Assembly (NCBI GenBank): GCA_964651815.1
Contig: CAZYWG010000004.1
Span: 36,977 to 100,976, forward strand
Length of the DNA stretch: 64,000 nt
Direction of reading: 5' to 3'
Origin: an uncultured Gammaproteobacteria bacterium
GTDB taxonomy: Bacteria > Patescibacteriota > Microgenomatia > Levybacterales > GWA1-39-11
A program made the position numbers and the translations under genes. Positions 3,094-18,170 of this stretch are shown one piece after another. Each line of letters starts with the position of its first letter. The stretch's first letter is position 1. Under the pieces are notes generated by a model. That model saw only the letters and a list, made by a program, of their open reading frames with translations, ran no database searches and was not told the origin of the DNA.

Positions 3094-6000
3094 TTAATTA
3101 ATTCTTTTGATTTTAATATTAAGCGCTTTTATAACAATAGTAATTATGACTATAAAAAGTAGTCCGAAGCCAATATATTCAAGATATTGAGGGAGATAGG
3201 CTATGACAATTGATTGTTCGTTTGAAATAAGCCAGCCGTTTTCCCAGGAATTTACTTCAAAATGTTGTTTGACTTCTTTTCCGAAGATAAAAGGAAAGAA
3301 TTGGTTTAAAAAGTTTGAGTTAGTAACGTAGTAAGCCTTCCAGCCGTGGTCATAACTTTGAGAAAGAACTAGATTAGCTTGTAGCTTGGAGCTGTTAGCT
3401 TTTAGGTTTACGATATACAGGCTTTCGTTTGGGTGCGAGACATTCTTAATTTGAGCTATCGTAGAACCAGAATTATTATTGTTTCCAGATTGGAAAGATA
3501 TATTTTCTATAAATTTTGACGGAATAGGGTAAACTTCAAGGGAAGAAAACTCGTTTTGGACAAGATCATTTCCAATTGCGCTGTTATCTAAGTGAAAAGA
3601 GTATCCTAGACCCCCACTTTCCATAGTCGGAACGCTAAGCGCTTGTGCCCCATGACCGTCAAGGTAAATATCAACTGGCGCCACTTTTTCATCCTCATTC
3701 AAGACCCAAAAATGAAGTGGACGGCCTGATAAATTTTGAGAGTTTACAAAAAGAGCGTAGCCTTGATCGTGCGACAATGTTGCAGAATAGAATGACAAAC
3801 ATTTACTTGAGTTTTTATCTGAAATATTAGCAACACCATTTACAAACGATGTGTTTGCCGCGCCGCTTCTGAAAGAATTACAGTTTTCAAATCTACCATC
3901 CACGCCTTTTGCTTTATATGAAAGGTAAGAATCATCAATCTTTGGGATAATAACAGAAATTACATGCGTTCCAGCACCAATCTTAATCTCTGATCCTTGT
4001 GTAAAAAGGTTTTCATAATCTGAGGAAGAAATTGTTGCTTGGCTAGCGACATCTTCACCCGACAAAACAATTTGATTATCAAGTGACATAAGAAGAAAGG
4101 TTGTGCCGATGGTCTTTGAACTTGGTAAGTTATCTGAAATTGTAATATTTGTTGTCCCGTTGATATTTATTACAGCTGGAAATGTAGCGGTGTTTGAAAT
4201 TGAGAAAAGTGGGATAGTAGTTTCATTTCCCCATACTTTTTTGCCATCTATTAATATTTGTGGAGTTTGAATTCTTGCATTGATTTGAATATTTCCATTT
4301 TCATCAACGTTCTTATAGAAGGAAGCAGAAACAATTTTTTCAACCTCTTGAAAATTTGGAACGACAAGATTTGAATCTTTTTGCAAGTTGATATTTGTTT
4401 GTAACGCAATATTAGTAGGGTTATTTTTAAGACTATACTGTGTTCGGTCGAGCATTTTTTGAGAAAAAAGCGAGAAAGGGTAGAGATAGTTATTAGTTAA
4501 TAGGGAATAGTTATTAGGTTTTGAAACGTAGTTACCCATTGTTGAGTAGGCAGGGTCATTTGTTTTCCAAGTAGGTGAATTAACGTTTGAAATATTTGCC
4601 GGAGCAGTAAATACAAATGAATTGGGTTTATCTTTGAGCGCAATTTTATAGATCTTTATCTTGCCGAATGTCGCGTCTAGTTTTGCTCCCGGTATTCTCG
4701 AGAGCAAATTTTCAGTTTCCGGATAAAAAAGGGAGTGCGGCGCCGGCGGATAAATAACATTTTCATCGAGCATAACAAATGAAATCTGGTACTTATTTAT
4801 TACATCTTCAAGCGCTTTGTAATTGTTGGAATAAAGTGCTGCAGAAAGCTGGTAATAATAACTTTCAGAGTCTTGTGACCAGACGTCAAAAGCCCTATCC
4901 AGAACTGGTTGATTCAAGCCATACCAGATAAATCCCGAGCCGCCCGACCCTTGGTCACCCCATCTATAAAATGTCCATCCCCAAAAAGTGTTTTGAGGTA
5001 AATTTGCAATTCGAGCATTTTGGTTTTGGTGTTTAAAATAGTCAAAAGTCTCAAAATATTCGTTTGGTATTTTTACCGTTACTTTATTGTAGAAAAGATT
5101 ACCGTTGAAGGCAGGGAGTGCAATCAAAAGAATCAAAAGGCAGGGAATAGATAATAGAAAATAGTTAATAGTTTTTTTAAGCTTTGAGTTATGAGTCTTA
5201 ATAATACTTATTAAAAAATCAAGAATAAATGATGTTCCAAGAGAAAGCATAATAGAATATGCTAATGCTGCAAGGAGCGAGAATTTTGTAAATGGGAAAC
5301 GGAATGCTTCACCTAAGAGAGGTAGAAATCTAAATGCCTGGTCAAAAAGAGCAAAAGGTTGGGTGCCGGTTGCAAGCATAGTGAAGGCAAAAAGGAAAAT
5401 TGCGGCATATGCTATCTTTGTTCTTTGCTCGTAGTTTTTAGTTCGCATCTTTAGCAAAGAGTGAATAAAACCTACAAGAATTATTCCAAAAAGTAGGAAA
5501 CCCGCGGCTGGGATAATGGGATTTGAAAAATGCGCTTTCCAAGGGGCAAGCATAAAAGTGTTGTTTCCGTTTATGTTAGGATCCACATTGTTAAACCAAA
5601 AGCCCTTGAGTAAAGCAGTATCTGGAAGAGTACCAAACTCCTTGTTTTGTGCAAAAATTACGCCAGACGACATTTGATTTATTTTGGCCGTTAGTGCCAC
5701 GCCTGAATTTGTAACAGTAAAATAAAAGAAAGGTAAAAGCCAAAAGGCATTGACAAGAAAAATTATCAAATAAAGTTTGGCGGCACGTGTCAGAAAAGAA
5801 ACGCGATTAGATTCAAATAGAAAATTCACAAATACGTAAATTGAAAGCGCAATCATCAAAACAACAAATAAGGTGGGGATATAGGCGCTCGGCGCGGCGA
5901 GTAAAAGAATAACTACCAAAAAAGCTAGCCGTTTTCTGCTTGGCTTCTCAAGGTAAAGTATGGATGACAGCAAGAACCATGGAAGCGCAGCAAAATGAGC

Positions 6001-10849: not shown

Positions 10850-11200
10850 TTTGTGGGTTCTCGGAGCGAGGGGCTTGTCAAAGTGACAAACTTTTTCTCG
10901 TTTTGAGACCTTATTCTTTTGGCAAGAAGCTAATCGGTCACGATCGTTCTTTGTTCGCATGCAATACGCGAGTTTTAGAACATTCGGTTCCTTTCGTTCT
11001 TGTCTAATAGGTTCGTTGCCGAACATGCTTGTCTCCTTTCTGAGACTGCACGGTGCTTACCGATAAATCCGTCCCCACAAGGGAAGGAGCCAGTCTTTGC
11101 CTGGTTTGGCAAAGTAGGCGTCCAATCCCTGTGAGGCGTGAGCTCACATTACGTCAGACGTAATCCAGTGAGTGAACTCACAAGTAACCCCCGGACGGAG
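10850..11200. other. intermediate-GC structured noncoding segment at the left junction of the GC-rich island
   Basis: There are no convincing ORFs here. The segment has dense palindromes and hairpins: gtgagctcac, attacgtc-a-gacgtaat, and gttcg-ttgc-cgaac. Confidence 0.3.
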
Positions 11201-12880
11201 CTAGCCACGCTGCGCAGTCGCCTCGCAGGTCTTGTTCCCAGAGCCTGAAACGGTCTTGTTAGTCGCACCGTCCCAGTTGTTGAAAACATACCCTGCGGGG
11301 ATGTCGAAATACGCACACGTTCCACCGCCATGGATCTTGACCTTGCCGTCGTCGAGCTGATCGTAACCGGTCACAGTGTTGCAACCAGTCTTGCACCAAC
11401 CCTTAACGACCTCGGGCGTAAGTCCAGAAGCGGCAGGAGCTGCGGTCTGCTGAGCGGGCGGAGCGGAACCCTGGGCCGGAGCCTGGGGCTGAGCCGTCTG
11501 CTGAGCGGGAACCGACTGCTGAGTACCGGTCATGGCTGATACCGGGCTGATAGGCATCGGAGCTGAAGCGGGAGCCGCAACACCGGAAGCCGAAGCCAAG
11601 TGACAGTCGTGGGCAGACGTGATGACCGGAGGGACAGTCCCAACAGCCACGTAGTCGCCACACCGGTACTCGTCGTCCATGCGTGCCCACTTGCCCGCCA
11701 ACCCAGGAACAAAGTCCACGGGGGCGTCGTAGAGCGTGGCTTCCGCGACACGGAATCCAGCGTTCACGTTGGCAGGACCCCAGATGCGGACTGATGACTT
11801 GCGGTTGTTGAGAGCCGCGTTGTCAAGCCACACGTCCAGGACCTTGCCGGCTGGCACGTTCATCTCGTAGCCTGGCAAAAACACGTCGTTCTGACGCATC
11901 CCAACCATCTTGTACGAGTCGTGCACGAAATCACCGTTGGCGCGCTGCAAAGGCCACCACTGCTCAGCAGGGCCTCCGATAACGTTGCCGTTGACGGTGA
12001 AGGGCGTGAACCCGGCCTGAGTCGCCTGCGCCTTGATGCAGGGGATATTGGGCGAGTTCGTCGCGCAGCTGTTGCTGTTGGCCTGCTGGTTTGCGGGCGT
12101 GGGCGAAAGCTGCGGTGCCGTCTGCGTGGGTACTACCGTGGCAGGGACCTGCGTCGCCTGAGGGGCGGGCGGGTTGCCGGCGGGTACCGTAGGCAGAGTG
12201 GCGGGCGTCGACGAGGGTGCGGGCGTGCTAGCCGGCTTGACAGGCGTAGGCGTAGGAGCCGTAACCTGACCGGGCTTAGCTTCGTCGAGAGCCGAAACGA
12301 TGTCGCGAGCCTTGACGTCAGCGTCGAGGTTCTTGATAGTCGTCACAGCTTCGTCCTGAGACAATCCACGATCGCGGGCACTGGCATAAGCGCCTGAGAT
12401 CTTCTTGGCGTCCGGGACGTCTACGTCGTGGCTCTCCAGAGCGGTCTCGGCCTTGCCGGCGTCCTTGTTGTCGGGCGCGAGGCTATGCAAAGCGCTCGTA
12501 GAGTCGTCCCGCAGATGCGAGCCGCCGCCATTGTTGTCGTTACCACCACCGTTGAAGAACGGGATGATGACAAACCAGGCGAGCACGGCCAGCACGGCGA
12601 GTCCAGCAACAGGCATCCAGTTGCGACGGAAAAAGTCCACCAGGCCGTTGCCACGAGGCGGAGCCTCCCAATCAATCTCTTCAGCGAGACCAACGGGTAC
12701 GTTCGCGTTGAGAGCGAACTGGTTCAGGTAGTTACGCAGAATCTGGCGAGCCTGAGCCGCGGTGGCGTCATCAGGTACATTCAGACCAGCGTTCGTCAGA
12801 AGGTTGATGGCTGCAATGATCCGCAGGAGGACATCCAACGGAGCCTGATCCACCAACCGGTTAAGATCGCGATAACGCAT
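11201..12880 (-). CDS. single-pass membrane protein with an anti-sigma-factor-like architecture
   Basis: A cytoplasmic N-terminus of about 90 aa precedes one TM helix (WMPVAGLAVLAVLAWFVIIPFF). A Pro/Thr/Ala-rich linker (TAPTPTPVKPASTPAPSSTPATLP...) follows, then a Cys-containing extracytoplasmic domain. The DNA is high-GC with Actinobacteria-like protein composition. An ECF sigma gene lies upstream on the same strand. Confidence 0.5.
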   Translation of the reverse strand: MRYRDLNRLVDQAPLDVLLRIIAAINLLTNAGLNVPDDATAAQARQILRNYLNQFALNANVPVGLAEEIDWEAPPRGNGLVDFFRRNWMPVAGLAVLAVLAWFVIIPFFNGGGNDNNGGGSHLRDDSTSALHSLAPDNKDAGKAETALESHDVDVPDAKKISGAYASARDRGLSQDEAVTTIKNLDADVKARDIVSALDEAKPGQVTAPTPTPVKPASTPAPSSTPATLPTVPAGNPPAPQATQVPATVVPTQTAPQLSPTPANQQANSNSCATNSPNIPCIKAQATQAGFTPFTVNGNVIGGPAEQWWPLQRANGDFVHDSYKMVGMRQNDVFLPGYEMNVPAGKVLDVWLDNAALNNRKSSVRIWGPANVNAGFRVAEATLYDAPVDFVPGLAGKWARMDDEYRCGDYVAVGTVPPVITSAHDCHLASASGVAAPASAPMPISPVSAMTGTQQSVPAQQTAQPQAPAQGSAPPAQQTAAPAASGLTPEVVKGWCKTGCNTVTGYDQLDDGKVKIHGGGTCAYFDIPAGYVFNNWDGATNKTVSGSGNKTCEATAQRG

Positions 12881-13212
12881 TGTAGCGTCCCTTCTCTACG
12901 AGCTTTCAGCTCATAGGTGTGCGGGAGGGGTTCTTCCTCTGACATTCGTCAAAGATTCCTCCTATTAACCTCATTCCGATGTTATCGGGACGGGCTCGCT
13001 GCCGATTCTACCGTTCAAGACGGAGTACTTATACGGCACGCTATTTAGCATCTAACGGTTTTGTTCATCGCATCTCCTTGATACGTGCTAGCCGTTGCGC
13101 TTGCTACCTTCCCGCGTGTGCTTACTCTGGTGCTTCTTGCTCAGCCACTTGCTGCGCTTATGCGTTCTCAGAGCATTGTCCACGTGGGCGGTCCGAGGCT
13201 TTTTGTTGGCCA

Positions 13213-13563
13213 TCAGAATCCTCCCAGGGAGTTGACTTCTACACGAACAGTGCGTTTCCGCGTGTGAATCGTGCGACCCACGAACGTGCGTCTCGAGCGT
13301 GAAGCTCCCAGAAATGCCAACTCGTCATCGTCGTCTTCGTCCTCGAAGAACAACATGTCGGGCGGGCTGCTTGCCTCAGGTTCGGCGGTGTCTTCAGAAG
13401 CTTGAGCCTCGTCATCGAGAACTCCTCCGATGCCGTTCTTGCGAAGGGCTTCGAGTGCTTCTGCTAACCTTGCCTGTTCTGCGGCGTTTCGTTTCTGGCG
13501 AACGTTCTGGTCGCGGGCGCTGCGCTTGGCCATCTTATGATTTCCCTTTGCGTTGTCGTCCAC
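13213..13563 (-). CDS. small highly charged protein (hypothetical)
   Basis: The ORF lies in the GC-rich block between the ECF sigma gene and the anti-sigma-like gene. It has a basic N-terminus (MAKRSARDQNVRQKRN) and an acidic stretch (FFEDEDDDDE). The start may be the internal Met at 13533. I recognise no family motif. Confidence 0.3.
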   Translation of the reverse strand: MDDNAKGNHKMAKRSARDQNVRQKRNAAEQARLAEALEALRKNGIGGVLDDEAQASEDTAEPEASSPPDMLFFEDEDDDDELAFLGASRSRRTFVGRTIHTRKRTVRVEVNSLGGF

Positions 13564-13752
13564 CGTGGGTGGGCATTACGCGTGGGGGCGGCGCAGACGT
13601 TCGGCGAGGCGGAGGCTTATCACTCGCTGACTGGTTTGCACCGGTCAGTTGATTAGCTTGTCGCCTGCCTTTTTTCGGTTCCTTAGACACTCTCTATCCT
13701 CCTGCGGGGCTGAAAGACTTCCAGTAGTCAATCGATGCTCCCTCGGGGGACT

Positions 13753-14298
13753 TCAGGCAAGAAGCTTGCGGAGATCCGCTAGCGTTCTGAACTGAAGCAC
13801 ACGTGTCACGGGGACAGTCATACCGAGCGCGGTAGCCGCCTCTTCGTAATCTTTGTCCTCGTAGAACCGCAACCTGACCAGCTTTCGCTTGTCACTAGGA
13901 AGCTTACCAACAGCGTCGCGAACGAGTTGCTCGTCCTCTAGCTGAAGAATAACAGCTTCAGGGTTGTGGTTCTGTTTCTCCTCCATGATGTCATCATCAA
14001 GCCGGTCGTTATCCCGCTTGCGCATGTGACTGATTGTCACGTTGTGCGCTATACGAAGTAACCAGCCTGCGAAAGCGTGACGATCCCTGCAACAGCCGAC
14101 TGCCTGCCAAGCCTTGAGAAAGGTCTCGGAGGTAAGGTCGTCTGCAACGTGGTTGTCACATACCATGAAGTAGATGTGTCGGTAGACACGCGTAGAGTAA
14201 CGACCGTAGAGTTCTCCGAACGCATCTGCGTCGCCTGCCGTAGCACGCAACACAAGATTTTGTTCTTCGTTCTCTCCGGTAAGAGCCAGAGTGGTCAT
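13753..14298 (-). CDS. ECF-type RNA polymerase sigma factor (sigma-70 regions 2 and 4)
   Basis: Region 2-like segment: FGELYGRYSTRVYRHIYFMV...SETFLKAWQAV. Region 4-like segment: KRKLVRLRFYEDKDYEEAATALGMTVPVTRVLQFRTLADLRKLL. A GAGG motif precedes the ATG. Confidence 0.85.
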   Translation of the reverse strand: MTTLALTGENEEQNLVLRATAGDADAFGELYGRYSTRVYRHIYFMVCDNHVADDLTSETFLKAWQAVGCCRDRHAFAGWLLRIAHNVTISHMRKRDNDRLDDDIMEEKQNHNPEAVILQLEDEQLVRDAVGKLPSDKRKLVRLRFYEDKDYEEAATALGMTVPVTRVLQFRTLADLRKLLA

Positions 14299-14645
14299 GC
14301 CACCGCCTCGCTTTCGCGAGAGTGTACCTGACTACTGGCTCGTAAGAATTCGGGCACTTCGTCCAGACTGCTTTTCGGCAGAGGCGTCTTGAAGACGTTG
14401 CCATTGGCGGTCGGGATGAGGAGAGAGTCGCGGGACTGTTCAAGCGGGCAGAGTGCCAACTGTAAGACAGCGTCCGTGAAGCTCCTCAAGTGCTCCGAGT
14501 CAGACCTGATGTCTGCCACACGATACTCGAACTTAATCGGGTATGTATCAAGTAAACTCAGGATGAGCTTCTTGACCCCGTGGGCAATCAGTTCAGGCGG
14601 CAACTCGCAAGCGAGAGCCTTGGGGGCGGGGTTGTTGCGGGGCAT
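14295..14645 (-). CDS. hypothetical protein translationally coupled to the ECF sigma gene
   Basis: Its stop overlaps the sigma start by 4 bp (ATGA). It is high-GC. No motif recognised. Confidence 0.4.
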   Translation of the reverse strand: MPRNNPAPKALACELPPELIAHGVKKLILSLLDTYPIKFEYRVADIRSDSEHLRSFTDAVLQLALCPLEQSRDSLLIPTANGNVFKTPLPKSSLDEVPEFLRASSQVHSRESEAVA

Positions 14646-14953
14646 GGAACCTATCCTTTTGGATTTCAGAATCGAGCTTGCCGTTTATACACCGTCCCTT
14701 ATTTTTCTATACCTTCCTCTCTTTCTTTGCTAATCAATGGCCGAATAAAACGCACCTTTTTCAAGTGTCAAACACCACGCACCATGCGCAGTTTCATGAC
14801 ATGGTACGCTGGGTTTAACACCTTATTTCATCTCGCTTATCGCGGGATTAAAGATGCGCTATATTCGGCCACCGAAGTCTTATATATGTATATATAAGGA
14901 AAGGGAGGATTAATAAATTCATTTGTACTCCAAATGAGTACTATTATCGGTTA

Positions 14954-14974: not shown

Positions 14975-15443
14975 TCTTTTACACTAATGAAATTTTTCAT
15001 CAGTGTTTCGAAATGTGTTTGAATAACACATTTCTCAACCTATTAGAATATATCTACTTTTCATCACAATGATACGACTCCTCGTTTTTAACTCGGAGTG
15101 ACAAAATATGTTTAAATAACACATTTTGTCAAGCGTGATTACGCAAATAGATATTCTGTGTACCTTTTGTTAAAGAACAACTAATAACTTGTAACTTAAA
15201 ACTTAAACTAGCTATGCTTTTAAGCCAGATAAGTCCAGTTACTCACTACTAGAATATACCGTCCTAAAAAAGGCACTTCTGTCGTTCCAATAGAACAACA
15301 GTCTGTGACCTTGTAAGGTCGGAGTAAGTGGTTTCAAGCGAAGTTTATTTTGAAGGTTTGTTTTTTGGGTCTTCTGCGGGCGCTGAACTGAAAGTGAAGT
15401 TGAAACTGCTTGAAACTGCTCCCTCCTGCCTTAAGGTAGGGTT

Positions 15444-16142
15444 TTAATTAATTTTCTTTTTAAGAAAGAATCCGAGTGCTCCGGACGAAATTAGTCCGAA
15501 TAATATGTCTGTTTCAGGCCCAGTAGATGGTACTTGATTAACAGTTGGTTTTTGAAAGATTTGTGGTGTGTTAGGCGTTGTTACACCAAGAATATTTTTT
15601 TCAATACAAACCTGAGAATTATCAGTTGCTTGCTGACCATCGGTTGAAGTTGCAGTTACATTGTTTATGACACAAGTGACAGCTTGGTTGTTTGGTAATT
15701 GTGCGCCGTCTGCTGTTTTTGCAGTTATAATGAATTCTGCTTTTTGACCTTTTGGAAGTGAGTTAACTACAAAGTTTATTTGAGATGCACCTGCATTGGA
15801 ATTTCCAACACCAGATACAAAGGTTAAGAATTGTGGGAAGGTATCAACAACATTAAGGTTTGAAATGTCAGTATCTCCTGTGTTTTCTACAACTATTTTA
15901 AAGTTTACGTTTTGGTTTGGAGCAAAGCGAGGATCATTAACAGTAAGGTTGTCAACAAAATCTCCGCCGCCTTTTCCAGGCTTTTGGACTAATTTGTTGA
16001 TTGTGAATTTAATTTGTGATTGACAGACTTGTCCACCACCATAAACTATTTGACAGTTAGACTGTCCACCAGAAGCGAGTGCGTTTCCTGCAACAGAAAA
16101 CAAAAGAGTTGCGGCAAAGACAAAAGTTAAAAGTTTTTTCAT
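15444..16142 (-). CDS. DUF11-like repeat-domain surface protein with a C-terminal sortase-type sorting signal
   Basis: Signal peptide MKKLLTFVFAATLLFSVAGNALA. A DUF11-like segment (NFKIVVENTGDTDISNLNVVDTFPQFL) is present. The C-terminus is VPSTG + hydrophobic stretch + KKKIN. The start was chosen at the Met preceding the signal peptide (16142) rather than the longest ORF (16190). Composition is host-like (AT-rich) even though the gene is embedded in the GC-rich island. Confidence 0.6.
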   Translation of the reverse strand: MKKLLTFVFAATLLFSVAGNALASGGQSNCQIVYGGGQVCQSQIKFTINKLVQKPGKGGGDFVDNLTVNDPRFAPNQNVNFKIVVENTGDTDISNLNVVDTFPQFLTFVSGVGNSNAGASQINFVVNSLPKGQKAEFIITAKTADGAQLPNNQAVTCVINNVTATSTDGQQATDNSQVCIEKNILGVTTPNTPQIFQKPTVNQVPSTGPETDILFGLISSGALGFFLKKKIN

Positions 16143-16689
16143 AAATTCAAACGATTTGTGAATTGTAGCATAACAAAAAGCATTTGTCAAGTGCTATAGG
16201 ACGTGATGTGTAGTTAATAGTTTATAGTGAATAGCTAATAGGTGAAAATTAATAAGATGGGGCCTTGATATATATAATAGGTAGAGTGGGTTGGTAATAA
16301 AGAGCAACTGTATTATAGGACTCTTTGTAAGAGTTGGGTAAAAAGAGACGGGTAGCGGGACTTAGCAGAAAGCTGTCTACGAGTTATATAAACCTCGGGC
16401 CTGTCCTCCTCCGGTCAATAAATTCATCCGCCTTAGTAAAAACTTCGGCGAGATAGATCGTAAACAGCTTCCTGCTCACTACGCTTCTACGTGGTAAAAA
16501 TGTAAAACGGGGGGCCCTGAAGGGATATACTGGTGTGAACCAGGGCAGAGAAGCAGTGCTATCTCAACCATCCCCCCAGGGCCTTGTCCCCATGACAAAG
16601 TCAATGAATTACGTTCATCACGCGTGTGGGTTGTACCTCATCGGTACTTTATGAAGGATCCCACAAGAACCCCGATTTAAGGTTTTCTC

Positions 16690-17694
16690 CTATCCGTTTT
16701 TGAGGCAGGGTATGCCCCACAGGCTTTCGCCGGCTGCAATCCACGTTGCCTTGCTAGGGTTGTCAGTCCTGCCTACGGTTCCACAAGTCCATTCGCCATG
16801 ATAGGCGTTTAGCCACGTGTCAAAGTAGACAGTTGCCTCAGCGAAGTTCATCTTGAAGGCCGGGCCGACCACAGTGATGCTAGGAGCATGCGTGACAGTA
16901 TCAGCAGGAAGGTTGAGAAACTCGTTGCTTTTAGAGCTGAGTTTGCATCCCTGCGTCAAGAAACCAAACTGGTCTCGAGCCTGCTTCCACGAGTCCGACG
17001 GGCCCCCTATCACAGCTGACATGGTCTGACAGAAATAGTCGCCATTGGCATACTTGTGTCCGTTGGCATCTACGGTTCCGTCAGAGTTGAATATGGGGTG
17101 TAGGACCTGACCACTGCCTCCCTTGATGGGGGGTAGAGGCTGGGAGTCCTTTTGTGTTTTCCCAACAGTGCCCGCAGGTGTACCAGCAGGAAGCCTGTTG
17201 AGATAGAACATGCCCCATTCAACATCAGGTAACGACAGAGTGTTGCCGCTCTCGACCTCTCCGGTGACGCGCTTGCCATGCGTGTCGACGGTGTACGACA
17301 GGACATAGATGCGTCCGTCGTTGTTGTAGCTGAAGTTCGCGGGAATTTCTAGTGTCACAGTCTCGCCGTAGTCCATTGTAGCCTGGTTGGCCGCGTCATG
17401 GAAACGAGAATCAGTGTTGCACGTTGCACACCAGCTTTTGACCGTGAGGCCAAAGAGGCTGGGGGCGCACTCCTGCTTACCGCACATAGGAAACGTGGCC
17501 GAAGCCGCGCTAGCGGAAGTGGGAGTGTTTGCCGGGCTGTTGGCAGTGACTTTCGTGTTGGTTGGCTTTGTGTTGTTGATGGGCGCACTCGTCTCGTTGT
17601 CGGTTGTCGTTGACTTGGACGTGTGCGAACCGCCGCAGGCCACTGCGAGAAGCAGCAGAGCCCCGAGAGCCAGAGAACCAATTCGAGTTGTCAT
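16690..17694 (-). CDS. lipoprotein (hypothetical), high-GC
   Basis: Signal peptide with a lipobox (LLLAVAC|GG). It is Thr/Asn/Pro-rich after the Cys and has multiple Cys residues. A strong SD (taGGAGGacac) lies upstream of the ATG. Confidence 0.6.
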   Translation of the reverse strand: MTTRIGSLALGALLLLAVACGGSHTSKSTTTDNETSAPINNTKPTNTKVTANSPANTPTSASAASATFPMCGKQECAPSLFGLTVKSWCATCNTDSRFHDAANQATMDYGETVTLEIPANFSYNNDGRIYVLSYTVDTHGKRVTGEVESGNTLSLPDVEWGMFYLNRLPAGTPAGTVGKTQKDSQPLPPIKGGSGQVLHPIFNSDGTVDANGHKYANGDYFCQTMSAVIGGPSDSWKQARDQFGFLTQGCKLSSKSNEFLNLPADTVTHAPSITVVGPAFKMNFAEATVYFDTWLNAYHGEWTCGTVGRTDNPSKATWIAAGESLWGIPCLKNG

Positions 17695-17710
17695 TTCGTG
17701 TCCTCCTAGA

Positions 17711-17965
17711 CTAACGTGAATTCGTGCTTGCCGATTTGTAAATCACCTCGTAGTGAGGTGTGTGGGTAGGCTCCTTGTGTGGGAGTATGTTCTCCAGGTT
17801 GATGAACCCGATGACCATTACCACTGTGAGCATCCCAGCTACTGTCCATACGCCTGCGCGCAGAACTTTGTCTTCATTAGCCGTTTTCTGGCGCTGGTGC
17901 TCGATCATCATGACCAAGACACAAACCAGAGCCAAGCCGATCCAAACCGCGGGGTGTTCGAACAT
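17711..17965 (-). CDS. small two-TM membrane protein (hypothetical), high-GC
   Basis: Two hydrophobic helices (VWIGLALVCVLVMMI and VWTVAGMLTVVMVIGFI). An SD (aaaGGAGAcac) lies 8 nt upstream. Confidence 0.4.
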   Translation of the reverse strand: MFEHPAVWIGLALVCVLVMMIEHQRQKTANEDKVLRAGVWTVAGMLTVVMVIGFINLENILPHKEPTHTPHYEVIYKSASTNSR

Positions 17966-18170
17966 TTGTGCGTGTCTCCTTTAAGACTACGAATGTGTCT
18001 GTCTCAACGAGTGTTGAGCGTAGACTGTGCCTGCCGATGTGTTTTTAGCGGGGTTTATGTCAGATTTTTGATTCGATCAACTCCTTATGCTATCCGCTAT
18101 AACTTCTCCATACCCAAAGTGGGTACATGGCTAACTTCTCATGAAGCGCAATCTGAATGTTAAATTATAC

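Follow-up and report, generated by a model that had tools for sequence, protein, structure and literature searches.

A 64-kb stretch of contig CAZYWG010000004.1 (the window) carries on its minus strand a gene for an extracytoplasmic function (ECF) sigma factor, located 5' of the gene for a 559-aa membrane protein here called X. The reading we favour, with a probability of roughly 0.55, is that a foreign cassette with a BldN-like sigma has been wired into a surface cluster of a Patescibacteria genome. The cassette 5' of X consists of a 116-aa open reading frame (ORF) termed up116, the BldN-like ECF sigma, a variable spacer, a basic 41-aa ORF termed pep41 and a leader of ~140 nt. All coordinates are window positions and refer to the minus strand unless stated otherwise; GC3 denotes the GC content at third codon positions. 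The elements concerned are, in the direction of reading:

14295..14645, minus strand: up116, a soluble orphan protein of 116 aa whose stop codon overlaps the sigma start (ATGA).
13753..14298, minus strand: ECF (group IV) sigma factor, BldN-like, 181 aa, without an N-terminal pro-extension.
13214..13752, minus strand: variable spacer with a 51-aa ORF starting at GTG (13535..13690) and a small basic/acidic ORF; coding status doubtful.
13088..13213, minus strand: pep41, a very basic, unannotated ORF of 41 aa (pI 11.9; MANKKPRTAHVDNALRTHKRSKWLSKKHQSKHTREGSKRNG).
12946..13087, minus strand: conserved leader of ~140 nt, ~95% identical to that of L004/L005, the second copy of the module.
12796..12945, minus strand: 49-aa ORF that begins MSEEEPLPHT and is out of frame (+2) with X.
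11201..12880, minus strand: membrane protein X, 559 aa.
12623..12880, minus strand: cytoplasmic head of X, residues 1-86, with helices predicted at 3-12, 15-29 and 41-58.
12557..12619, minus strand: transmembrane (TM) helix of X, residues 88-108, N-in as predicted from hydropathy.
11591..12088, minus strand: ectodomain of X, residues 265-430, beta-rich and containing cysteines, with the motifs NSPNIPC, VIGGPAEQWWPLQ and AEATLY.
11204..11425, minus strand: C-terminal module of X, ~70 aa, WCxxGC...WDG...CE.
10990..14900, minus strand: first GC-rich island, 55-65% GC, gene GC3 0.58-0.78, holding every gene named above.

On the minus strand up116 is followed by sigma, a small charged ORF (13213..13563) and X. 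This is the order given in a preliminary description of the DNA, and the overlap of the up116 stop with the sigma start (ATGA, sequence GGCATGACC) was confirmed as well. The gaps, described there as ~190 and ~330 bp, measure 189 nt between sigma and the small ORF and 332 nt between the small ORF and X. Neither of them is empty, as the first contains the 51-aa GTG ORF and the second the conserved pep41 and leader.

Judged by its sequence, the 181-aa protein is a bona fide ECF sigma, as had been stated. It matched Sigma70_r2 (1e-16), Sigma70_r4_2 (1.2e-7) and TIGR02937 with 80.4 bits against a cutoff of 42.9. The best named NCBIfam model was the BldN family TIGR02952 with 110.8 bits, which is under the equivalog cutoff of 206.45. 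The pro-extension of actinobacterial homologues of the TIGR02952 type (230-300 aa) is missing, and the window protein begins 13 residues before region 2. It was considered whether up116 could be this pro-domain in detached form, and the candidate was rejected since up116 has no similarity to those N-terminal extensions (phmmer E>2). The closest solved chain is 6dxo_A (E 7e-21). This chain was identified as S. venezuelae BldN, since its residues V4, E11, A12, F15, Y19, D20 and S23 match contacts named in PMC6101532. Among 5.8 billion proteins the nearest homologue is P0007 with 65% identity, followed by proteins with at most 48%; actinobacterial BldN-type sigmas with N-terminal extensions share 35-40%. 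A tblastn search against phages returned generic ECF matches only (<=35% identity). The homologues with 45-48% identity (loci L006-L011) are followed downstream by RcpC/CpaB and a CpaE-like response-regulator ATPase, i.e. a Tad/Flp pilus locus, and no recognisable anti-sigma gene was seen at these loci.

The window is part of an AT-rich genome of the Patescibacteria (Candidate Phyla Radiation, CPR). The best match of its leucyl-tRNA synthetase (LeuRS) among GTDB species representatives has 58% identity and comes from a 'Patescibacteria group bacterium'. The cluster that contains the cassette runs from a DUF11/CLIPPER surface-protein gene over X, the glycosyltransferases (GT) GT2 and GT4 and a 695-aa protein to an 1133-aa protein with a weak GT-C match. 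X has four close homologues (P0002-P0005 at L002, L003, L094 and L095), all of them encoded between DUF11/CLIPPER and GT2 with no sigma, up116 or pep41 adjoining; P0127 (L102) directly follows CLIPPER with no sigma between. X itself is present and GC-rich at all five syntenic loci (L002, L003, L094, L095 and L102), while the sigma cassette is missing from 5/5 and a different leader occupies its position. The cassette is regarded as an insertion because no sigma is found at this position in any of the five. It is known from the window and, as far as a short contig shows, from the L004 lineage.

A distant cluster (L100, with the X homologue P0130) consists of sortase, CLIPPER, X, GT1 and a 958-aa protein and was judged orthologous. 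Identities to the window are 39% for the 958-aa versus the 1133-aa protein, 37% for GT1, 35% for X and 34% for DUF11. The X of L100 has a TAT (twin-arginine translocation)/TM signal only and no head, and its GC3 is native (0.39). On the grounds of synteny at the related loci and of the orthologous L100 cluster, X belongs ancestrally to a surface/glycosylation cluster of Patescibacteria. The cytoplasmic head, the P/T/A-rich linkers and the richness in GC are confined to a single clade. When 1.84e9 representatives were searched exhaustively with an ectodomain profile (HMMER), only 23 proteins reached E<1e-3, and a scan of the GTDB representatives with the X profile found no relatives.

Composition and codon usage of the first island deviate as is typical of horizontally acquired DNA. 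Its GC content of 55-65% compares to a window average of ~37% (genome ~37%), and the GC3 of its genes (0.58-0.78) to 0.23-0.41 in the other 40 large ORFs of the window. GC3 exceeds 0.5 in four of the 44 large ORFs, namely X (0.70), up116 (0.69), a 334-aa gene (0.64) and sigma (0.58), all four inside the two GC-rich islands. Counting both strands, the stretch 11.2-14.9 kb is overlapped by eleven ORFs with 100 aa or more; ORF length alone is weak coding evidence here because long chance ORFs are common in DNA of 55-65% GC. The steps in composition are abrupt, which would also fit a chimeric misassembly or a contamination on an AT-rich contig, and both Logan contigs of the module start at the same point of the AT-rich spacer, one of them ending in the conserved leader. 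An artefact of this kind is scarcely credible, however, as the Logan assembly of another run (L001/L096) spans sigma through the GC-rich X into the AT-rich GT2 and the sigma module recurs in a second Logan run (L097). Moreover, five related loci from other samples pass from an AT-rich CLIPPER into a GC-rich X, and L002 and L094 continue into an AT-rich GT2.

A second copy of the cassette is found in L004 and L005, which are one sequence recovered from two datasets, ERZ27251559 and JGI 3300005364. It comprises an up116 homologue, a sigma with 65% identity (dN/dS ~0.38; proportion of synonymous differences, pS, 0.41), a shorter spacer, a 40-aa ORF (pep40), the leader and a SAP-like head from MSEEEPLPHT. 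The linkage of sigma, small ORFs, pep41/pep40, leader and a similar helical head is kept in both known copies. The up116 homologue is a partial ORF with 61% aa identity (pS 0.36, non-synonymous proportion pN 0.24, dN/dS ~0.6). Because it shows the same 4-nt overlap with sigma, up116 is supported as a real gene. There is no family match for up116 in any library and, beyond L004/L005, no homologue among 5.8e9 proteins.

The two copies are nearly identical (~95% nt) over window positions 12,919-13,213, a block that contains pep41, the leader and the ten codons of MSEEEPLPHT; the leader alignment itself pairs window 12919-13093 (minus strand) with L004 1252-1420. This level is kept in leader and pep41 although sigma is 65% identical and pS amounts to 0.41 in sigma and 0.36 in up116. 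For pep41 there is a Shine-Dalgarno sequence (GGAGGA); its start codon overlaps the stop before it (TGATG), its in-frame GC3 is 0.79, and a gene caller predicted it on the Logan contig L097. It shares ~94% nt identity with the 40-aa ORF of L004, with synonymous and non-synonymous differences mixed as read from the alignment. No family match was found for it. A known small ribosomal or other solved protein was considered for pep41 and rejected, since there is no PDB sequence match.

In the hairpins predicted for the leader, the GGAGG Shine-Dalgarno sequence is base-paired and the conserved AUG (12945) is enclosed (fold z-score -1.6). Two distinct leader sequences exist and they contain no compensatory pairs. 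No Rfam family was matched at E<=1; a covariance model (R1) found the leader in the window and L004 only and nothing at the sigma-less loci, and a metagenome scan with a leader 20-mer found the L005 contig only. One viral-contig match to a leader 19-mer was rejected as a 24-nt chance match. The two Logan contigs share their starting point at ~15,429, immediately behind the DUF11 gene, and one stops within the leader at ~13,006. This hints that the leader is an assembly-graph branch point, maybe common to several strains or genomes of the sample. At the sigma-less loci (L002 9880-9940, L003, L094 and L095; alignment columns ~311-366), the leaders are unrelated to that of the window by covariance-model search. 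They contain an invariant TTGACA and a long hairpin, in which L002 differs from the other three by a compensatory (A-U to G-C) and a wobble change. A promoter scan called no sigma-70 promoter in them despite the invariant TTGACA.

In L004, the conserved start runs in frame into the SAP-like head (MSEEEPLPHTTPERDETLKYSELKSEL...). In the window, X starts at an in-frame ATG 65 nt downstream of the conserved AUG 12945, and the Logan assembly agrees with the window in this respect. The 49-aa ORF is either the ancestral N-terminus severed by a frameshift or an overlapping upstream ORF. It was weighed whether the locus is a decaying remnant, that is, a recent horizontal acquisition being lost in which sigma and X are no longer connected. 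The conserved AUG out of frame with X, the doubtful small ORFs, the spacer that is not conserved and the failure to find an ECF promoter motif would agree with this. On the other hand, sigma and up116 are intact and under purifying selection as compared to L004 (dN/dS 0.38 and 0.6), X is a full-length ORF from its downstream ATG, and the conservation of leader and pep41 goes far beyond that of neutral sites. Decay is judged highly improbable.

The small charged ORF had been proposed to be part of an unusual three-component sigma unit, in which the small basic/acidic protein and X would jointly control sigma as anti-sigma plus adaptor or anti-anti-sigma. The ORF encodes 116 aa from GTG (13213..13563) or 106 aa from the ATG at 13533 and contains MLFFEDEDDDDELAF. 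Its charge pattern is unusual, the 106-aa form was called by gene callers on two Logan contigs, all genes of the unit lie on the same strand and no terminator was predicted between them. The spacer of L004, however, is ~310 nt long, i.e. ~230 nt shorter, not alignable with that of the window, and has different small ORFs (45-aa basic, 35-aa hydrophobic). The GC3 frame signal is ambiguous and gives the small ORF no preference, a 117-aa antisense ORF overlaps it, and ORFs of such size arise by chance at 60% GC. No family was matched in Pfam, NCBIfam, PHROG or PADLOC scans, in line with the earlier remark that no family was recognised. The small charged protein did not hold up as a component, being absent from the only related module and no more than chance would give; the acidic ORF is probably not part of the system. 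What stands of the three-component unit is the real ECF sigma, the N-in topology and the recurrent linkage. It lacks anti-sigma similarity, a conserved small ORF and sigma at the other X loci, and joint control by the two proteins is highly improbable.

The likely route of expression of the favoured cassette starts upstream of up116, at the following element:

14993..15132, minus strand: AT-rich spacer with two palindromes ATGTGTT-N5-AACACAT (19 bp), 93 bp apart.

One palindrome overlaps a sigma-70-like site, a consensus match (TTGACA-16/18-CATATT/TATTTT) at 15,132-15,103 that points to up116/sigma. Going by these sequences, the palindromes and the TTGACA site may be promoter and operator of the up116-sigma transcript. 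The two genes would be translationally coupled and transcribed from this spacer. A consensus scan found no minus-strand promoter-like site within the first island and none terminator-like between sigma and X; the minus-strand terminator-like matches in the island lie upstream of up116 and inside X. Since neither an intrinsic terminator nor a sigma-70-like site lies between them, X probably shares a transcript with sigma or is driven by sigma. The simplest arrangement would be one transcript from the spacer over up116, sigma, pep41 and the leader to X. The leader hairpins, by occluding the Shine-Dalgarno sequence and AUG, would gate translation of X. The sigma would most likely control surface-protein genes here, as BldN does for the surface sheath proteins of Streptomyces.

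The single hydrophobic segment of X (residues 88-108; Kyte-Doolittle >1.6) is directly preceded by RR, which predicts an N-in topology. X has P/T/A-rich linkers and eight cysteines, all after the TM helix and thus extracytoplasmic. A regular-expression search found no HxxxCxxC in X, up116, the small ORF or the 334-aa protein. The preliminary description was accurate on these points, i.e. the single TM helix, the PT-rich linker, the cysteines of the outer domain and the missing zinc motif. It had also seen the classic anti-sigma topology in X: the predicted N-in single-pass topology and the linkage on the same strand agree with this, whereas no anti-sigma HMM (hidden Markov model), motif or fold could be found.

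In AlphaFold models of both the full-length protein and the head only, the head consists of three helices with a predicted local distance difference test (pLDDT) score of 72-88. It has no PDB sequence match. SAP (PF02037) was matched by the heads of P0004 (18.8 bits, E 1.2e-3) and L004 (19.6 bits, E 7e-4), in both cases under the gathering score of 23.9, and not by the window head. Helices 2 and 3 of the window head resemble SAP/HeH together with their loop, and ...NAGLNVPDDATAAQARQILRNYLNQ lines up by eye with GLGLATGGNATQRRARLRTFLNAQ of P0004. According to a sequence comparison, the sigma-linked heads (window and L004) have an extra N-terminal helix that the sigma-less heads do not have. The modelled head fits either a SAP-like head recruited for sigma binding or an unrelated function. 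In the full-length model, the ectodomain reached a pLDDT of 50-70 and its best Foldseek hit (E 0.06) was cupin/CBM-like noise. A tblastn search of the ectodomain against phages gave no match. The C-terminal module also occurs as tandem repeats in the unrelated proteins P0135 and P0139. Lipoprotein or TAT signals, or else short basic tails, occur in other members of the X family. The ectodomain has no fixed association with a sigma-binding head.

X belongs to no known anti-sigma family and is first of all a part of the surface cluster. By analogy, the three-helix N-in head of X would be the best candidate for a membrane tether of sigma, RsbN-like in function and not of the class I ZAS (zinc-binding anti-sigma)/RskA type; this assignment is tentative and falls short of even chances. 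That sigma has no dedicated anti-sigma is likewise conceivable, if doubtful. It is somewhat unlikely that sigma cassette and X are neighbours rather than partners. X would then be purely a surface or envelope protein whose SAP-like head has another task, for example binding DNA or a cytoskeletal element, and sigma would be controlled by up116, as soluble anti-sigma or co-factor held in fixed ratio through the ATGA overlap, or transcriptionally only. X homologues at the five syntenic loci have no adjoining sigma and the distant L100 orthologue is headless, which counts against X as an anti-sigma; related heads give sub-threshold SAP matches, and up116 is kept in L004 along with its 4-nt overlap. 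RsbN homologues are reported to be confined to Streptomyces (PMC6101532), so BldN-like sigmas elsewhere have no recognised partner of the RsbN type. However, up116 lies 5' of sigma, which is unusual for an anti-sigma, has no anti-sigma signature and is under weak constraint (dN/dS ~0.6), and it is an unlikely candidate for a regulatory sigma partner. Separate roles also fit poorly with the linkage of sigma, pep41, leader and head in both known copies and with the extra N-terminal helix seen in sigma-linked heads only.

Several findings weigh against a foreign sigma cassette wired to X. Just two independent copies of the module are available, with no evidence of covariation or co-evolution, and the L004 contig ends before any TM helix or ectodomain. 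As marks of mobility, neither an integrase nor a tRNA nor flanking direct repeats were found in the window. Sigma and X are ~870 nt apart with other ORFs between them, which is atypical for sigma/anti-sigma pairs. The conserved start is out of frame with X in the window, so that a truncated N-terminus or gene decay is possible. The heads at sigma-less loci have the same SAP-like helix-loop-helix and, hence, it is not specific to sigma-linked loci. The HMM searches suggested for the N-terminus of X and the small protein detected no anti-sigma similarity: zf-HC2, RskA, RseA_N or related models in Pfam and NCBIfam did not match X, its head, up116 or the small ORFs at E<=10, and on similarity this contradicts the initial proposal. 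The head model gave no Foldseek match at E<2 to any anti-sigma domain, RsbN or SAP. An autoregulated ECF promoter, suspected between 14,646 and 14,900, was not found there (GGAAC..CGT or GAAC-N14-19-CGT), and the frequency of the latter pattern across the window is that of chance. Finally, no bipartite motif is shared by the regions upstream of up116, pep41/X and the 334-aa gene.

Further features of the region are:

14738..14871, minus strand: inverted repeat with 22-nt arms, 86% complementary, and a 90-nt spacer, inside the upstream island edge and 5' of up116.
15444..16190, minus strand: AT-rich DUF11/CLIPPER surface-protein gene, the upstream neighbour of X in all related loci.
~16,400-18,000: second GC-rich island, carrying the 334-aa ORF.
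16690..17694, minus strand: 334-aa lipoprotein-like distant paralogue of X with permuted ectodomain motifs (BLAST E 8e-4, hhalign E 0.0085; weak).
17711..17965, minus strand: 84-aa ORF with two TM segments, just upstream of the 334-aa gene.

The interval between Rho and CLIPPER, which houses the 334-aa gene in the window, is only ~290 nt long in L002. Other genes of the window encode Rho, an M23 peptidase, a tetratricopeptide repeat (TPR) protein, pyruvate kinase and a histidine kinase. A tRNA search of the window found none, a PHROG scan matched generic sigma-factor families only and a PADLOC scan gave no matches. A weak RAGATH-10 match at 14353-14428 (plus strand), antisense within up116, is probably due to chance (24 bits versus a gathering score of 41.2, E 0.48). 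At L002 11565-11638 (plus strand), in the stretch that separates the GC-rich membrane gene from the start of GT2, a type III hammerhead (RF00008) was matched with 41.3 bits (E 9.6e-6), which does not reach the gathering score of 48.5. In L003, at ~5440-5500, the CUGAUGAG...CGAAA core recurs with a compensatory stem II (UCUU/AAGA versus UCCC/GGGA), and the equivalent site of the window is without a hammerhead motif.

The base composition of X poses a problem of its own. Compared with the four loci of its close homologues, the window X has saturated synonymous sites (pS 0.68-0.73), and so do the flanking genes between the window and L002 (0.69-0.73). The aa identities are similar, with 50-54% for X, 60% for GT2, 51% for GT1 and 83% for Rho. 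From these sequences, X looks vertically inherited together with its flanks. Its GC3 is nevertheless ~0.7 across the whole clade versus ~0.3 in the neighbouring genes, compared with the native value of the outgroup L100. GC-rich regions extend over 10990-14900 and 16400-18000 in the window, 10001-11500 in L002, 3900-5500 in L003 and 1400-2880 in L102. A single transfer followed by ordinary amelioration does not explain X because such amelioration should have erased the difference in GC content. Candidate causes are recurrent import or gene conversion from GC-rich DNA and selection at the mRNA level. It would be a long shot to regard the locus as an actively maintained GC-rich compartment, present at at least six AT-rich Patescibacteria loci, with sigma cassette, pep41 and leader as a recombining host-interaction module and X doubling as a sigma tether of a new class derived from SAP. 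This would require recurrent recombination with GC-rich DNA, e.g. from the GC-rich host of an epibiont, GC-biased gene conversion or mRNA selection. Ordinary amelioration hardly accounts for a GC-rich gene that has stayed at one syntenic site of AT-rich genomes while its synonymous divergence reached saturation.

The genomes of Patescibacteria are small, and little is understood of how their surfaces are regulated. If the favoured reading of an acquired cassette is true, a BldN-type ECF sigma in a surface-glycosylation cluster would be a tangible example of horizontal transfer adding regulatory capacity. If, in addition, the head binds sigma, RsbN-like (non-class-I) sequestration would extend beyond Streptomyces and an existing surface protein would have been recruited as anti-sigma. 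The pep41 ORF and the near-invariant leader are candidates for a new cis-regulatory element.

Among known systems, the class I pairs (RpoE-RseA, SigW-RsiW, SigK-RskA; ZAS) likewise combine an ECF sigma with a downstream gene, on the same strand, for a single-pass N-in protein that has a helical head and an extracytoplasmic domain. In contrast to these, X has no zf-HC2, RskA or RseA_N match, no HxxxCxxC and not the class I fold of a three-helix bundle plus a fourth helix. The window genes are not adjacent, and the ectodomain of X is ancestral to a surface cluster that also occurs sigma-free. With the sortase/CLIPPER/glycosyltransferase clusters of Patescibacteria (L100, L002, L003, L094, L095 and L102), the window shares the ectodomain of X and the order of DUF11/CLIPPER, X, glycosyltransferases and a large ~1100-aa protein. 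It differs from them by the added sigma cassette and the second GC-rich paralogue (334 aa), and by an X that has a cytoplasmic head and long linkers rich in P/T/A and whose GC3 of 0.70 departs from native composition.

The third comparison is with BldN-RsbN of S. venezuelae, a class III anti-sigma system. RsbN spans the membrane once, has a head of ~90 aa made up of three helices and is similar in sequence to no other protein; its gene adjoins bldN, and residues 4-21 and 39-79 are ordered in the crystal (PMC6101532). The window sigma differs in being under the BldN-family cutoff and in having no pro-extension. In X, helix 2 directly follows helix 1 and a loop precedes helix 3; in RsbN, a long linker separates the first two helices. 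Neither by sequence nor by Foldseek does the head of X resemble a PDB chain, that of RsbN included. In the window, ~870 nt with ORFs and a leader separate the two genes, and the organism belongs to the Patescibacteria, whereas RsbN homologues are reported from Streptomyces only. There are also points of likeness. The best solved relative of the window sigma is BldN itself, and most of the sigma-2 residues by which BldN contacts RsbN are conserved. The candidate partner X is likewise a predicted single-pass N-in protein with a head of ~90 aa modelled as three helices, a large ectodomain, no known anti-sigma similarity and a gene located downstream of sigma. Finally, BldN drives genes for cell-surface proteins, and the window sigma sits in a surface-protein cluster.

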